Notes under the pieces: generated by a model
Seen by the model: the letters and a program-made list of their open reading frames with translations, nothing else
Database searches by the model: none
What the model was told of the DNA's origin: nothing
Shown: piece after piece, positions 28,953 to 40,003 of the stretch
Layout: each line of letters opens with the position of its first letter
Position numbering within the stretch: the first letter of the stretch is position 1
Assembly: GCF_044324875.1 (NCBI RefSeq)
Contig: NZ_CP172185.1
DNA length: 64,000 bases
Source of the DNA: Escherichia coli
GTDB taxonomy: Bacteria > Pseudomonadota > Gammaproteobacteria > Enterobacterales > Enterobacteriaceae
Reading direction: 5' to 3' (one strand)
Made by a program: the position numbers and the translations under genes

Positions 28953-30311
<1,359 letters not shown>

Positions 30312-30347
30312 TTAATTAACTGATGATGAGCCTGGATTTCCGCTCTC

Positions 30348-30384
30348 ACTGAATTTTTATGCAAAATAAATGAGTTTTCATTTA
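30348..30384 (-). promoter_or_regulatory. Probable tandem ARG boxes (ArgR operator) upstream of argG
   Basis: Minus strand reads ...AATGAAAACTCATTTATTTTGCATAAAAATTCAGT..., two adjacent TGAAT/ATTCA-like palindromes matching the ARG-box consensus, 50-90 nt upstream of the argG ATG. Confidence 0.5.
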
Positions 30385-30521
30385 ATCATCTTTTATCGGA
30401 GACAGGAAGAGTTTAGTGTGTTTTTTGTAAAATAATGCGCTTAAGGGAGAGCAGGAGAAGGCAAAAGTATTCAACAAATGAAAGTGAACCGGATATTCAT
30501 TCACGTGATTAGCAATAAACG

Positions 30522-30551
30522 TTGACAAAATGTGGCATGGATCACTATAAT
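30522..30551 (+). promoter_or_regulatory. Sigma-70 promoter of the metY-rimP-nusA-infB operon
   Basis: Consensus -35 TTGACA (30522-30527) and consensus -10 TATAAT (30546-30551) with 18-bp spacer, about 90 nt upstream of the tRNA. Confidence 0.7.
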
Positions 30552-30643
30552 GCCTGCAGATTTTACGTCCCGTCTCGGTACACCAAATCCCAGCAGTATT
30601 TGCATTTTTTACCCAAAACGAGTAGAATTTGCCACGTTTCAGG

Positions 30644-30720
<77 letters not shown>

Positions 30721-30926
30721 CTTTCCCTTAGAGTCCTTTTTCAAATATACTGTGAAGACTTCGGCCTTCGTAGTGGGATTTGAAAAAATCCTTCTGGAAA
30801 GTGCTCCAGACCGCAGTTGCGGTTATAGGGTTCAGTTATATAAAGCCCCGATTTATCGGGGTTTTTTGTTATCTGACTACAGAATAACTGGGCTTTAGGC
30901 CCTTTTTTTATGTCTTGGGGGTGGGC

Positions 30927-31379
30927 TTGTCCACATTAGAGCAAAAATTAACAGAGATGATTACTGCGCCAGTTGAGGCCCTGGGTTTTGAACTGGTTGG
31001 CATCGAATTTATTCGCGGTCGCACATCCACACTGCGCATCTATATTGATAGTGAAGATGGCATCAATGTTGATGATTGTGCTGATGTGAGCCACCAGGTA
31101 AGTGCTGTGCTGGATGTTGAAGATCCCATCACCGTTGCTTATAACCTGGAAGTCTCCTCACCGGGTCTCGATCGCCCACTGTTCACGGCTGAACACTACG
31201 CCCGTTTCGTCGGAGAAGAGGTGACTCTGGTTCTCCGCATGGCGGTACAAAACCGTCGTAAATGGCAGGGCGTTATCAAAGCGGTAGACGGTGAAATGAT
31301 CACAGTTACCGTCGAAGGTAAAGATGAAGTGTTCGCGCTGAGTAATATCCAGAAGGCGAACCTGGTTCCCCACTTTTAA
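30927..31379 (+). CDS. rimP: Ribosome maturation factor RimP
   Basis: Translation ...[27 protein letters not shown]...; start set at TTG 30927 for the 150-aa form; in-frame GTG 30921 and TTG 30915 are alternative starts. Confidence 0.85.
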
Positions 31380-31406
31380 TAGTCTGGATGAGGTGAAAAG
31401 CCCGCG

Positions 31407-32894
<1,488 letters not shown>

Positions 32895-32918
32895 TAAACT
32901 GTAGCAGGAAGGAACAGC

Positions 32919-35591
32919 ATGACAGATGTAACGATTAAAACGCTGGCCGCAGAGCGACAGACCTCCGTGGAACGCCTGGTACAGCAATTTGCTGATGCAG
33001 GTATCCGGAAGTCTGCTGACGACTCTGTGTCCGCACAAGAGAAACAGACTTTGATTGACCACCTGAATCAGAAAAATTCAGGCCCGGACAAATTGACGCT
33101 GCAACGTAAAACACGCAGCACCCTTAACATTCCTGGTACCGGTGGAAAAAGCAAATCGGTACAAATCGAAGTCCGCAAGAAACGCACCTTTGTGAAACGC
33201 GATCCGCAAGAGGCTGAACGCCTTGCTGCGGAAGAGCAAGCGCAGCGTGAAGCGGAAGAGCAAGCCCGTCGTGAGGCAGAAGAATCGGCTAAACGCGAGG
33301 CGCAACAAAAAGCTGAACGTGAGGCCGCAGAACAAGCTAAGCGTGAAGCTGCTGAACAAGCGAAACGTGAAGCTGCGGAAAAAGACAAAGTGAGCAATCA
33401 ACAAGACGATATGACTAAAAACGCCCAGGCTGAAAAAGCCCGCCGTGAGCAGGAAGCTGCAGAGCTCAAGCGTAAAGCCGAAGAAGAAGCGCGTCGTAAA
33501 CTCGAAGAAGAAGCACGTCGCGTTGCTGAAGAAGCACGTCGTATGGCGGAAGAAAACAAATGGACTGATAACGCGGAACCGACTGAAGATTCCAGCGATT
33601 ATCACGTCACTACTTCTCAACATGCTCGCCAGGCAGAAGACGAAAGCGATCGTGAAGTCGAAGGCGGCCGTGGCCGTGGTCGTAACGCGAAAGCTGCGCG
33701 TCCGAAGAAAGGCAACAAACACGCTGAATCAAAAGCTGATCGTGAAGAAGCACGCGCAGCAGTACGTGGCGGTAAAGGCGGAAAACGTAAAGGTTCTTCG
33801 CTGCAGCAAGGCTTCCAGAAGCCTGCTCAGGCCGTTAACCGTGACGTTGTGATCGGTGAAACCATCACCGTTGGCGAACTGGCGAACAAGATGGCTGTTA
33901 AAGGCTCTCAGGTCATCAAAGCGATGATGAAACTGGGCGCAATGGCAACCATCAACCAGGTTATCGATCAGGAAACCGCACAGCTGGTTGCTGAAGAGAT
34001 GGGCCACAAAGTTATCCTGCGTCGTGAAAACGAGCTGGAAGAAGCGGTAATGAGCGACCGTGACACGGGTGCAGCGGCTGAACCGCGCGCGCCGGTTGTG
34101 ACCATCATGGGTCACGTTGACCACGGTAAAACCTCTCTGCTGGACTACATTCGTTCAACGAAAGTGGCCTCTGGCGAAGCGGGCGGCATTACCCAGCACA
34201 TTGGTGCATACCACGTTGAAACTGAAAACGGCATGATCACCTTCCTGGACACCCCGGGGCACGCCGCGTTTACTTCAATGCGTGCTCGTGGTGCGCAGGC
34301 AACGGACATCGTAGTCCTGGTTGTTGCTGCCGACGACGGCGTAATGCCGCAGACCATCGAAGCAATCCAGCACGCGAAAGCGGCGCAGGTTCCGGTGGTG
34401 GTTGCAGTGAACAAGATCGATAAACCAGAAGCCGATCCGGATCGCGTTAAGAACGAACTCTCCCAGTACGGCATCCTGCCGGAAGAGTGGGGCGGTGAAA
34501 GCCAGTTCGTACATGTGTCTGCGAAAGCGGGTACTGGTATCGATGAGCTGCTGGACGCTATCCTGCTGCAGGCGGAAGTTCTGGAACTGAAAGCGGTACG
34601 TAAAGGTATGGCGAGCGGTGCGGTTATCGAATCCTTCCTCGATAAAGGTCGTGGTCCGGTTGCTACCGTTCTGGTACGTGAAGGTACTCTGCACAAGGGC
34701 GATATCGTTCTGTGTGGCTTCGAATACGGTCGTGTTCGTGCGATGCGTAACGAACTGGGTCAGGAAGTGCTGGAAGCGGGTCCGTCCATTCCGGTGGAAA
34801 TCCTCGGCCTGTCCGGCGTTCCGGCTGCGGGTGATGAAGTTACCGTTGTACGTGACGAGAAGAAAGCGCGTGAAGTTGCACTCTATCGTCAGGGTAAATT
34901 CCGCGAAGTTAAACTGGCGCGTCAGCAGAAATCTAAACTCGAGAACATGTTCGCCAACATGACCGAAGGCGAAGTTCACGAAGTGAATATCGTCCTGAAG
35001 GCAGACGTACAGGGTTCTGTGGAAGCTATCTCCGACTCCTTGCTGAAACTGTCTACTGACGAAGTTAAAGTGAAGATCATCGGTTCTGGCGTAGGTGGTA
35101 TCACCGAAACCGACGCTACCCTGGCTGCGGCGTCCAACGCCATCCTGGTTGGCTTCAACGTACGTGCTGATGCCTCTGCACGTAAAGTGATTGAAGCGGA
35201 AAGCCTGGATCTGCGTTACTACTCCGTCATCTATAACCTGATCGACGAAGTGAAAGCGGCAATGAGCGGTATGCTGTCTCCGGAACTGAAACAGCAGATT
35301 ATCGGTCTGGCGGAAGTTCGTGACGTGTTCAAATCGCCGAAATTTGGTGCCATCGCAGGCTGTATGGTTACCGAAGGTGTGGTTAAACGTCACAACCCGA
35401 TCCGCGTTCTGCGCGACAACGTGGTTATCTACGAAGGCGAGCTGGAGTCCCTGCGCCGCTTCAAAGATGACGTTAACGAAGTCCGTAACGGTATGGAATG
35501 TGGTATCGGCGTTAAGAACTACAACGACGTCCGCACTGGCGATGTGATCGAAGTATTCGAAATCATCGAAATCCAACGTACCATCGCTTAA
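32919..35591 (+). CDS. infB: Translation initiation factor IF-2 (alpha form)
   Basis: 890-aa ORF with G-domain motifs [18 protein letters not shown]. In-frame GTG at 33390 and ATG at 33411 fall where the known internal starts of the shorter IF2 forms lie. Confidence 0.97.
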
Positions 35592-35603
35592 GGTTGTCTG
35601 GGT

Positions 35604-35682
35604 TGTAGGCCGGATAAGGCTTTTACGCCGCATCCGGCAGCCGTTGCCTGATGCGACGCTCGCGCGTCTTATCAGGCCTACA
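35604..35682. repeat. REP elements in the infB-rbfA intergenic region
   Basis: tgtaggccggataaggcttttacgccgcatccggcag and gcctgatgcgacgctcgcgcgtcttatcaggcctaca. Confidence 0.8.
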
Positions 35683-35749
35683 CAGCCCTTTCCACCTGAG
35701 ATTAATTTTAAAAGGGGCTATGGCCCCTTTTTTGTCAGGAGAATTTATT

Positions 35750-36151
35750 ATGGCGAAAGAATTTGGTCGCCCGCAGCGCGTAGCGCAGGAAATGCAAAAA
35801 GAGATCGCTCTCATCCTGCAGCGTGAAATTAAAGATCCTCGTCTGGGCATGATGACCACCGTTTCCGGTGTCGAAATGTCTCGTGACCTGGCGTATGCCA
35901 AAGTATATGTAACGTTCCTCAACGACAAAGATGAAGACGCGGTTAAAGCGGGCATCAAAGCGTTGCAGGAAGCTTCTGGTTTCATCCGCAGCCTGCTGGG
36001 GAAAGCGATGCGCCTGCGTATCGTGCCGGAACTGACCTTCTTCTACGACAACTCGCTGGTTGAAGGGATGCGCATGTCAAACCTGGTGACCAGCGTGGTC
36101 AAACATGACGAAGAACGTCGTGTTAACCCGGACGACAGCAAGGAGGACTAA
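35750..36151 (+). CDS. rbfA: Ribosome-binding factor A
   Basis: ORF 35651..36151; start at Met of [33 protein letters not shown]... (133 aa). Confidence 0.92.
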
Positions 36152-37095
36152 TGAGTCGTCCTCGTCGTCGCGGTCGCGACATTAACGGCGTGTTGTTGCT
36201 GGATAAACCGCAGGGTATGTCCAGCAACGATGCGCTGCAAAAAGTGAAACGGATTTATAACGCCAACCGTGCCGGGCATACCGGTGCGCTGGACCCGCTG
36301 GCGACCGGCATGTTGCCGATTTGCCTCGGGGAAGCGACGAAGTTTTCCCAGTACCTGCTGGACTCCGACAAACGCTATCGGGTCATTGCGCGTCTTGGAC
36401 AGCGTACCGATACGTCTGACGCCGATGGACAAATCGTTGAAGAACGTCCGGTAACCTTTAGCGCAGAGCAACTGGCGGCGGCACTGGATACTTTCCGTGG
36501 CGATATCGAACAGATCCCATCGATGTATTCAGCACTGAAATACCAGGGCAAAAAACTGTACGAATATGCGCGTCAGGGCATTGAAGTACCGCGTGAAGCG
36601 CGCCCGATTACCGTTTATGAATTGCTGTTTATTCGCCACGAAGGCAATGAGCTGGAGCTGGAAATTCACTGCTCAAAAGGCACTTATATCCGCACCATTA
36701 TTGATGACCTGGGTGAAAAACTCGGTTGTGGCGCGCATGTTATTTACCTGCGTCGTCTGGCGGTAAGTAAATATCCGGTTGAACGGATGGTGACCCTGGA
36801 ACATCTGCGTGAACTGGTTGAACAAGCCGAACAGCAGAATATTCCAGCCGCGGAGTTACTTGATCCATTACTGATGCCAATGGACAGTCCAGCTTCGGAC
36901 TACCCGGTGGTGAATCTTCCGTTAACGTCTTCTGTTTACTTCAAAAATGGTAACCCGGTTCGTACATCCGGTGCGCCGCTGGAAGGACTGGTTCGCGTTA
37001 CAGAAGGTGAGAACGGCAAGTTTATCGGTATGGGCGAAATTGACGATGAAGGCCGCGTCGCGCCTCGTCGCCTGGTGGTTGAATACCCGGCGTAA
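36151..37095 (+). CDS. truB: tRNA pseudouridine-55 synthase
   Basis: 314-aa ORF with catalytic [11 protein letters not shown] motif; overlaps rbfA stop. Confidence 0.96.
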
Positions 37096-37147
37096 TGTTA
37101 ACCGTCTTGCGATAACAGGTCGCTACGAGTAGAATACTGCCGCTTAA

Positions 37148-37513
<366 letters not shown>

Positions 37514-37526
37514 TTCTTGCGAGTTT

Positions 37527-37559
37527 CAGAAAAGGGGGCCTGAGTGGCCCCTTTTTTCA
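37527..37559 (+). terminator. rpsO intrinsic terminator
   Basis: aaaagggggcc-tgagt-ggcccc-ttttttc immediately after the rpsO stop. Confidence 0.8.
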
Positions 37560-37604
37560 AGCTGACGGCAGCAATTCACTGGAAACTAATGTATTGTTGC
37601 TATG

Positions 37605-37708
37605 AATGATCTTCCGTTGCAGAGGTTCGCGCGGCTAATGAGAGGCTTTACCCACATTGGGCTGGGTTAGGGTTGTCATTAGTCGCGAGGATGCGCAGAA
37701 GATCGGGT
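37605..37708 (+). promoter_or_regulatory. pnp leader long imperfect stem-loop (known RNase III autoregulatory processing site)
   Basis: Arms around atgatcttccgttgcagaggttcgcgcg (about 37605-37634) and cgcgaggatgcgcagaagatcgggt (about 37684-37708) are largely complementary; lies between rpsO and the pnp start. Confidence 0.6.
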
Positions 37709-37759
37709 ATTAACACCAGTGCCGTAAGGTACTGTCTAAGAAAGAGAAAGGATATTACA

Positions 37760-39895
37760 TTGCTTAATCCGATCGTTCGTAAATTCCAGTACGGCCAACA
37801 CACCGTGACTCTGGAAACCGGCATGATGGCTCGTCAGGCTACTGCCGCTGTTATGGTTAGCATGGATGACACCGCGGTATTCGTTACCGTTGTTGGCCAG
37901 AAAAAAGCCAAACCAGGTCAGGACTTCTTCCCACTGACCGTTAACTATCAGGAGCGTACCTACGCTGCTGGTCGTATCCCGGGTAGCTTCTTCCGTCGTG
38001 AAGGCCGCCCAAGCGAAGGCGAAACGCTGATCGCGCGTCTGATTGACCGCCCGATTCGCCCGCTGTTCCCGGAAGGTTTCGTCAACGAAGTTCAGGTTAT
38101 CGCCACCGTGGTTTCTGTTAACCCGCAGGTTAACCCGGATATCGTCGCGATGATTGGTGCTTCCGCAGCACTGTCTCTGTCTGGTATTCCGTTCAATGGT
38201 CCGATTGGTGCTGCCCGCGTAGGTTACATCAATGACCAGTACGTACTGAACCCGACTCAGGACGAGCTGAAAGAGAGCAAACTGGATCTGGTTGTTGCGG
38301 GTACTGAAGCCGCTGTACTGATGGTTGAATCTGAAGCTGAACTGCTGAGCGAAGACCAGATGCTGGGCGCAGTAGTGTTCGGTCATGAACAACAGCAGGT
38401 TGTTATTCAGAACATCAATGAACTGGTGAAAGAAGCCGGTAAACCGCGTTGGGACTGGCAGCCGGAGCCGGTAAACGAAGCGCTGAACGCGCGCGTTGCT
38501 GCACTGGCTGAAGCTCGTCTGAGCGATGCTTACCGCATCACCGACAAACAAGAGCGTTATGCGCAGGTTGATGTCATCAAATCTGAAACCATCGCGACGC
38601 TGCTTGCTGAAGATGAAACCCTGGACGAAAACGAACTGGGTGAAATTCTGCACGCTATCGAGAAAAACGTTGTTCGTAGCCGCGTACTGGCAGGCGAACC
38701 GCGTATCGACGGTCGTGAAAAAGATATGATTCGTGGTCTGGATGTGCGTACTGGCGTGCTGCCGCGTACTCACGGTTCTGCGCTGTTCACCCGTGGTGAA
38801 ACGCAGGCACTGGTTACTGCAACGCTGGGTACCGCTCGTGACGCACAGGTTCTTGATGAACTGATGGGCGAACGTACCGACACCTTCCTGTTCCACTACA
38901 ACTTCCCTCCGTACTCCGTAGGCGAAACCGGCATGGTCGGTTCTCCGAAGCGTCGTGAAATTGGTCACGGTCGTCTGGCGAAGCGCGGCGTGCTGGCAGT
39001 CATGCCGGATATGGACAAATTCCCGTATACCGTACGTGTGGTGTCTGAAATCACTGAATCCAACGGTTCTTCTTCTATGGCTTCCGTGTGCGGCGCGTCT
39101 CTGGCGCTGATGGACGCAGGTGTGCCAATCAAAGCTGCCGTTGCGGGTATCGCAATGGGTCTGGTGAAAGAAGGCGACAACTACGTTGTACTGTCTGACA
39201 TTTTGGGCGACGAAGATCACCTGGGCGATATGGACTTCAAAGTTGCGGGTTCCCGCGACGGTATCTCTGCATTGCAGATGGATATCAAAATTGAAGGTAT
39301 CACCAAAGAGATCATGCAGGTTGCACTGAACCAGGCTAAAGGTGCGCGTCTGCATATCCTGGGCGTAATGGAACAGGCGATCAACGCGCCGCGCGGCGAT
39401 ATCTCTGAGTTCGCTCCGCGTATCCATACCATCAAGATCAACCCGGACAAGATCAAAGACGTTATCGGTAAAGGCGGTTCTGTTATCCGTGCTCTGACCG
39501 AAGAAACTGGCACCACCATCGAAATCGAAGATGACGGTACTGTGAAAATCGCAGCGACCGACGGCGAGAAAGCGAAACATGCTATTCGTCGTATCGAAGA
39601 GATCACTGCAGAAATCGAAGTGGGCCGCGTCTACAATGGTAAAGTGACCCGTATCGTTGACTTTGGCGCATTTGTTGCCATCGGTGGCGGTAAAGAAGGT
39701 TTGGTACACATCTCTCAGATCGCTGACAAACGCGTTGAGAAAGTGACCGATTACCTGCAGATGGGTCAGGAAGTACCGGTGAAAGTTCTGGAAGTTGATC
39801 GCCAGGGCCGTATCCGTCTGAGCATTAAAGAAGCGACTGAGCAGTCTCAACCTGCTGCAGCACCGGAAGCTCCGGCTGCTGAACAGGGCGAGTAA
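37760..39895 (+). CDS. pnp: Polynucleotide phosphorylase (PNPase)
   Basis: ORF 37673..39895; start set at TTG 37760 (…ttg ctt aat ccg = M-L-N-P) for the 711-aa product; RNase PH, KH and S1 domains. Confidence 0.93.
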
Positions 39896-40003
39896 GGTTG
39901 CCATTTGCCCTCCGCTGCGGCGGGGGGCTTTTAACCGGGCAGGACGCCTTGTTAGCAACCGGGAACAGGACGTTCATTCAACCGTGGTCTTCGGGAGTGG
40001 GAA

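Follow-up and report, generated by a model that had tools for sequence, protein, structure and literature searches.

Start-like codons inside infB

A GTG and an ATG that lie in frame inside infB raise the question of whether shorter forms of IF2 are translated from them and, if so, which properties of the mRNA mark them as starts. We examined this in a 64,000-nucleotide stretch of DNA, referred to here as the window, from an E. coli chromosome. Based on direct reading, the ORF listing and translation, infB occupies 32919-35591 on the plus strand (890 aa, stop included), and the gene order is argG / tRNA-Met / rimP / nusA / infB / rbfA / truB / rpsO / pnp. A 1.2-kb query covering the nusA-infB junction and the internal starts was 100% identical to an E. 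coli chromosome and was found in 5425 of 5426 complete E. coli genomes, where the matched features were in every case annotated as nusA and infB. In the infB product, Pfam assigned two IF2_N domains, IF2_assoc (residues 56-94), GTP_EFTU (G domain, from residue 393), EF-G_D2, IF-2 (665-779) and GTP_EFTU_D2, which is the enterobacterial architecture of two IF2_N sub-domains parted by a charged linker and followed by the G domain. PDB chains of E. coli IF2 match the product as well. Compared with infB of K-12 MG1655, the gene differs at 29 nucleotides; every change is synonymous, and the two proteins are the same. None of these differences falls in nt 310-560 of infB, and identity to K-12 is complete over the stretch that starts 45 nt before the GTG and ends 36 nt after the ATG. 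The gene and the two codons are as follows.

32919..35591, plus strand: infB coding sequence (IF2-1 or IF2-alpha, 890 aa), identified by the ORF list, translation, Pfam, E. coli annotation and K-12 identity
33390..33392, plus strand: GTG, codon 158, almost certainly the start of IF2-2 (IF2-beta); K-12 CDS YP_010283915.1, peptide 158-175, mutation g474c, GTG in 81/81 sequences
33411..33413, plus strand: ATG, codon 165, almost certainly the start of IF2-3 (IF2-beta' or gamma); K-12 CDS YP_010283916.1, peptide 165-175, mutation t494c, ATG in 72/81 sequences

An earlier note on this DNA had placed an in-frame GTG at 33390 as codon 158 and an in-frame ATG at 33411 as codon 165, and direct reading agrees with its coordinates, codon numbers and frame (32919 + 157 × 3 and 32919 + 164 × 3, respectively). 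The mere presence of start-like in-frame codons in infB is unremarkable. Because the gene contains 46 in-frame ATG/GTG/TTG codons (22 GTG, 21 ATG and 3 TTG), such codons are not special in themselves.

Evidence for initiation at GTG158 and ATG165

In the K-12 RefSeq genome (NC_000913.3), three infB CDSs with a common stop are annotated, with starts at 3316014, 3315543 and 3315522. The two extra starts lie +471 and +492 nt from the first and are equal to positions 33390 and 33411 of the window. GUG158 and AUG165 are named in PMC13245402, whose supplement contains K-12 N-terminal peptides covering residues 158-175/176 (MSNQQDD..., with Met at the GTG) and 165-175 (MTKNAQAEK...). When these K-12 peptides were compared with the translation of the window, the sequences were equal, with Val replaced by Met at 158, so the comparison with published isoform N-termini that the earlier note had put forward came out positive. 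A Met at the GTG-encoded residue 158 can only come from initiation.

Mutational data from K-12 point to the same codons. The substitutions g474c (gug to guc) and t494c (aug to acg) eliminate IF2-2 and IF2-3 while functional full-length IF2-1 is retained (PMC3334882), and nt 472-474 and 493-495 of the infB studied here are the GTG and ATG that these substitutions target. The del1 allele carries a deletion that begins 14 nt before the IF2-1 start and leaves 32 nt ahead of the IF2-2 start; although its IF2-1 start is gone, IF2-2/3 are still made (PMC3334882). Codons 1, 158 and 165, or the three isoforms, are also stated explicitly in 10.1101/2021.06.16.448654 and PMC12297416. According to Pfam, both internal starts fall between the two IF2_N domains, a position also given in PMC1780047.

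As such, the GTG at 33390 and the ATG at 33411 are almost certainly internal translation starts that give IF2-2 (beta, residues 158-890) and IF2-3 (beta' or gamma, residues 165-890) beside full-length IF2-1 (alpha), which is what the earlier note had proposed for the two codons. The basis for both codons being used for initiation is literature combined with sequence identity. The feature is already known, as the reference genome annotation includes these textbook starts of IF2-2 and IF2-3.

Shine-Dalgarno pairing at the internal starts

To compare the internal starts with the primary one, the 3' end of 16S rRNA was slid over the region from -22 to -3 of each in-frame start-like codon. Two sequences are relevant here.

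32905..32913, plus strand: Shine-Dalgarno (SD) region of the primary start, CAGGAAGGA, spacing 5 nt before the ATG at 32919; -6.5 kcal/mol
33375..33381, plus strand: GCGGAAA, a possible weak SD-like (GGA) or other ribosome-contact element; invariant in 81/81 sequences, -15 to -9 from the GTG

At AUG1 (32919), CAGGAAGGA forms an anti-SD duplex of -6.5 kcal/mol, and an equal or stronger upstream match was found at only 2% of in-frame positions. The best duplex at GUG158 (33390) was -3.5 kcal/mol, formed by GCGGAA at a spacing of about 9-10 nt, with 28% of in-frame positions equal or stronger. For AUG165 (33411), the best duplex was -2.3 kcal/mol with no convincing motif, and 58% of in-frame positions were equal or stronger. 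In this anti-SD pairing scan, a canonical SD 5-9 nt upstream and clearly above background was found at neither GUG158 nor AUG165. An SD-like sequence upstream of 33390, for which the earlier note had suggested looking, was therefore essentially absent, and we rejected SD-driven initiation as the main determinant of the internal starts, the pairing being weak and at background level. Codons 153 (GCG) and 154 (GAA) are codon-invariant among the 81 sequences compared, and a weak SD function of the invariant GCGGAAA is conceivable.

Repeat blocks and antisense reading frames around the starts

The earlier note had also described a repetitive Glu/Ala/Arg-rich coding stretch just upstream of the starts and had made it responsible for long spurious antisense ORFs. 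The stretch is real, as residues 98-217 of IF2 consist of 84% E+A+R+K+Q compared with 43.5% in the whole protein, but it is found both before and after the starts, not only upstream of them.

33228..33384, plus strand: upstream block of imperfect 24-nt (8-codon) repeats, E/A/R/K/Q-rich linker (Tandem Repeats Finder, composition)
33471..33554, plus strand: downstream block of imperfect 24/21-nt repeats, E/A/R-rich linker (Tandem Repeats Finder)
33078..33722, minus strand: antisense ORF of 214 aa, in register with the infB codons, not a gene; no Pfam match, 1-6 stops in 65/81 species
33068..33397, minus strand: 109-aa antisense ORF, not a gene; no Pfam match, interrupted in 77/81 species

The two internal starts occupy a short non-repetitive island between the repeat blocks. 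Long antisense ORFs do exist and are spurious. Neither of the two listed above matched a Pfam family, and their frames are open in only 16/81 (33078..33722) and 4/81 (33068..33397) species, so both were rejected as genes. Their attribution to the repeats did not hold. Because the longest antisense stop-free stretch in infB (34275-35592) lies outside the repeats and the codon-register antisense frame contains only 4 stops in all of infB, the antisense openness is due to gene-wide codon usage (avoidance of TTA/CTA/TCA) and low T content, not to the repeats specifically. Still longer antisense ORFs are present over nusA and pnp.

Conservation of the internal initiation region

Species-representative genomes were scanned with IF2 residues 1-377, which yielded 80 Enterobacteriaceae loci with 80-94% aa identity and, together with E. 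coli, a codon-aware alignment of 81 sequences. Codon 158 is GTG in 81/81 sequences, E. coli counted, although these sequences are closely related and the conservation counts are not independent events. Among 70 conserved Val columns, only two (V85 and V158) use a single codon throughout, whereas all four Val codons occur in 47. Codon 165 is ATG in 72/81 sequences, a count with a slight bias toward ATG165 and none toward GTG158, since Met165 is part of NQQDDMTK, one of six peptides used for retrieval. The nine sequences in which ATG165 is absent belong to Mangrovibacter (3), Trabulsiella (2), Entomohabitans, Shimwellia, strain LSJC7 and one record labelled Citrobacter freundii, and codon 165 is replaced in them by CAA, AAA, TCG, GTA, GAA or GCA. 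Near codon 165, none of the nine has a substitute start except for a GTG at 170 in LSJC7, and they probably make only two isoforms.

Synonymous codon diversity, calculated in 11-codon windows, reaches the minimum of the gene at codons 151-161 (0.041 compared with a gene mean of 0.30), and the nine lowest-diversity windows all lie within codons 147-165 (33357-33413). Considering columns with an invariant degenerate amino acid, 3/6 are codon-invariant in codons 147-165 compared with 54/603 gene-wide (hypergeometric P about 0.01). No sequence among the 81 deviates from GCGGAAA at positions -15 to -9 relative to the GTG. Within E. coli, the 60-nt core at 33361-33420 is 100% identical in 5300/5425 genomes and 95-99% identical in the other 125. 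Based on these sequence comparisons, the internal starts are conserved among Enterobacteriaceae beyond what the coding requirement alone would impose. What the comparison adds is that GUG158 is universal in the Enterobacteriaceae sequences compared, that AUG165 is lost in several genera, and that the strongest synonymous constraint of infB falls on the internal initiation region.

Predicted openness of the mRNA around the starts

We performed a local-folding calculation over the infB mRNA with a window of 150 and a span of 100. The 41-nt surroundings of GUG158 and AUG165 ranked at the 98th and 96th percentile, respectively, of single-nucleotide unpairedness within infB, and the probability of a 30-nt open stretch near the two codons was at the 99th percentile in the gene. 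The most open bin of infB was predicted to be centred at 33399, and the region 33360-33440 consists of 44% A and 10% T. Across 71 near-full-length infB genes, GUG158 accessibility had a median at the 98.5th percentile within its own gene, and in 66/71 species no window of the gene was predicted to be more open than one at codons ~160-169. These accessibility values are thermodynamic predictions for naked mRNA and take no account of ribosomes that elongate IF2-1 across the site.

A structured RNA element at 33340-33460 was rejected, as this 121-nt segment folded no better than shuffled controls (z = +0.66). Likewise, an Rfam scan of 29000-40000 at E <= 1 found no family inside infB. Our analysis confirms that the internal site has no SD of consequence and that no other part of the infB mRNA is predicted to be more open.

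Alternative origins of the short forms

GTG158 and ATG165 might be ordinary Val and Met codons that are start-capable by chance and have no initiation function, a reading that the 46 in-frame ATG/GTG/TTG codons and the lack of a convincing SD before either codon would favour. However, the protein and the local nucleotides are identical to those of K-12, where peptides and mutations prove initiation at both codons, and the GTG is invariant in 81/81 sequences with the synonymous-diversity minimum of the gene at the same spot. With N-terminal peptides published that carry Met at the GTG-encoded position, chance occurrence is refuted, and we give it next to no probability. Proteolytic cleavage of full-length IF2 in a flexible linker would also yield shorter proteins. 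The starts do lie in a low-complexity, probably flexible inter-domain linker, and flexible low-complexity linkers are typically protease-sensitive. Nevertheless, the peptide MSNQQDD... begins with Met at a Val codon of the gene, which only initiation can explain; start-codon mutations remove the short forms and leave functional full-length IF2-1, and a deletion without the IF2-1 start still makes IF2-2/3 (PMC3334882). Refuted by the Met-initiated peptides together with the mutational data, cleavage has virtually no credibility as the source of the short forms.

The two codons could alternatively be 5'-proximal starts of a separate shorter mRNA that arises from an internal promoter or by processing. 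Additional promoters have been described in the nusA-infB region under cold stress (PMC6511841), and the A-rich unstructured region could be an RNase E target. Against such a transcript, a promoter scan of 32700-33700 with the sigma70 consensus gave no sigma70-like site, with 0.5 expected by chance. Translation of the short IF2 forms from intact mRNA was reportedly observed by Laursen in 2002. In the literature, including references cited in PMC1780047, the process is called tandem or intracistronic translation. We consider a separate transcript very improbable. A terminator scan of the same 32700-33700 region gave three minus-strand terminator-like hairpins, which is the chance level (3 versus 2.0 expected). 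Finally, 30S subunits might not load independently, and internal initiation could instead require ribosomes already translating the IF2-1 frame, which would re-initiate or scan as 70S. No in-frame stop codon precedes the sites, and del1, in which the IF2-1 start is missing and only 32 nt remain ahead of the GTG, nevertheless expresses IF2-2/3 (PMC3334882). The conserved open, A-rich region also fits direct loading of 30S and S1. Although the SD is weak or absent and the internal starts lie inside an actively translated region, dependence on upstream translation is contradicted by del1 and seems very improbable.

Proposed mechanism of internal initiation

We favour direct initiation at the internal starts by an SD-independent mechanism in which an open stretch of mRNA serves as a landing pad, and we consider this mechanism likely for infB. 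The region proposed is given below.

33357..33413, plus strand: putative internal translation initiation region, codons 147-165 (synonymous constraint, A-rich, predicted unstructured, del1)

According to this model, 30S subunits would bind directly at an internal initiation region that functions autonomously, at about 33357-33413, and its activity would come mainly from its A-richness and lack of secondary structure. It would not rely on a canonical Shine-Dalgarno site, and any anti-SD pairing would be limited to a weak contact by the SD-like GGA within the invariant GCGGAAA. Selection on RNA openness may then suppress synonymous change around the GTG, in codons 147-165, across Enterobacteriaceae. 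Laursen et al. in 2002 (Genes Cells 7:901) are said to have shown experimentally, by silent mutations, that open mRNA structure is required. The del1 data (PMC3334882) and sequence identity show that no more than 32 nt ahead of the GTG are needed when the IF2-1 start is absent, and the left edge of the constrained region 33357-33413 is no more than 1 nt from that of the sequence kept in del1 (33358). The extreme synonymous conservation of codons 147-165, including GCGGAAA, might reflect, beyond the need for an open, A-rich landing site, a specific cis-regulatory RNA element that sets the IF2-1 : IF2-2/3 ratio through a trans-acting factor or temperature sensing, with AUG165 as a dispensable back-up start that was lost in several enterobacterial lineages; we consider this rather unlikely.

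Comparison with known systems

The short forms lack Domain I, which consists of the first IF2_N sub-domain and the linker. Domain I, present on IF2-1 only, has been implicated in NusA binding, DNA repair and replication restart, and both long and short IF2 forms are needed for optimal growth (PMC3334882, 10.1101/2021.06.16.448654, PMC12297416). IF2 isoform biology is thus established, and the sites found in another E. coli strain add nothing new to it.

The closest system is the tandem translation of K-12 infB from codon 1, GUG158 and AUG165, which involves the same gene, the same codon positions and a protein identical to the one encoded here; this strain differs by only 29 synonymous substitutions, none of substance. 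Tandem translation of K-12 infB was reportedly described by Plumbridge et al. in 1985, Nyengaard et al. in 1991 and Sacerdot et al. in 1992. Intracistronic infB initiation in other Enterobacteriaceae, which Laursen et al. in 2002 (Genes Cells 7:901, cited in PMC1780047) are said to have reported, is in line with the GTG158 and upstream context found in all 80 species and with a region predicted to be open in nearly all of them. Unlike E. coli, nine enterobacterial sequences lack ATG165. In Bacillus subtilis, infB gives alpha and beta forms, reportedly according to Hubert et al. in 1992, and an internal in-frame start produces an N-terminally shortened IF2 as in E. coli, whereas its position and context are said to differ.

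Beyond infB, ClpB-80 and CheA-S of E. coli are internal-start proteoforms that lack an N-terminal domain of distinct function. In the unrelated Salmonella gene for SsaQ, tandem translation from a second in-frame start likewise gives a shorter protein without the N-terminal domain (PMC3195561). Many other internal-start pairs use a recognisable internal SD, whereas the infB sites are essentially without one.

Secondary low-diversity segments and RNA elements in and around infB

Across the 81 Enterobacteriaceae, low synonymous diversity or codon-invariant columns were also clustered in three secondary segments of infB, apart from the main low-diversity region at codons 147-165:

33156-33191, codons 80-91, with columns S80, E84, V85 (GTC) and F91
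33240-33272, codons 108-118
35415-35465, codons 833-849, with columns E839, L842, L845, R847 and K849

These clusters may reflect codon bias within strongly conserved segments or an RNA-level signal close to the 3' end of infB. When 35300-35800 was scanned for promoter- or terminator-like sites, none was found. In the infB-rbfA intergenic region, naRNA4, a REP-type nucleoid-associated RNA, was matched by Rfam at 35608-35678 on both strands, and the same scan recovered four other RNA elements already known from in and around this operon:

30644-30717, tRNA (metY)
30809-30909, rimP leader
37186-37300, S15 leader
37530-37701 (-), SraG, an sRNA antisense to the spacer between rpsO and pnp

Long antisense reading frames

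Three antisense ORFs, all longer than those opposite the Glu/Ala/Arg-rich repeat region of infB, were observed in the window:

31593..33062 (-), 489 aa, opposite nusA
34275..35633 (-), 452 aa, opposite the 3' half of infB
37736..39958 (-), 740 aa, opposite pnp

Their lengths are consistent with the scarcity of TTA, CTA and TCA codons in highly expressed genes.

Comparison genomes and annotation

Using 32700-33900 as the query against 5426 complete E. coli genomes, we found that only one genome lacked any match, that the query matched at up to 5 places in one genome, and that the nusA-infB segment was plasmid-borne in one record. Among the retrieved loci, CACSKA010000008.1 is titled 'Chryseobacterium sp. 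18061' and carries an enterobacterial infB (83% amino acid identity), so its assembly is probably mislabelled or contaminated. NZ_JAALBX010000005.1, titled 'Citrobacter freundii M-21', is possibly misidentified; its infB is just 84% identical and lacks the internal start ATG165, unlike other Citrobacter infB genes, which show ~90% identity and retain ATG165. In the K-12 reference (NC_000913.3, 3313342-3316014), the product name 'translation initiation factor IF-2beta'' is given to all three infB CDS features, the full-length CDS included, and this shared name in K-12 RefSeq looks like a slip of annotation labelling.
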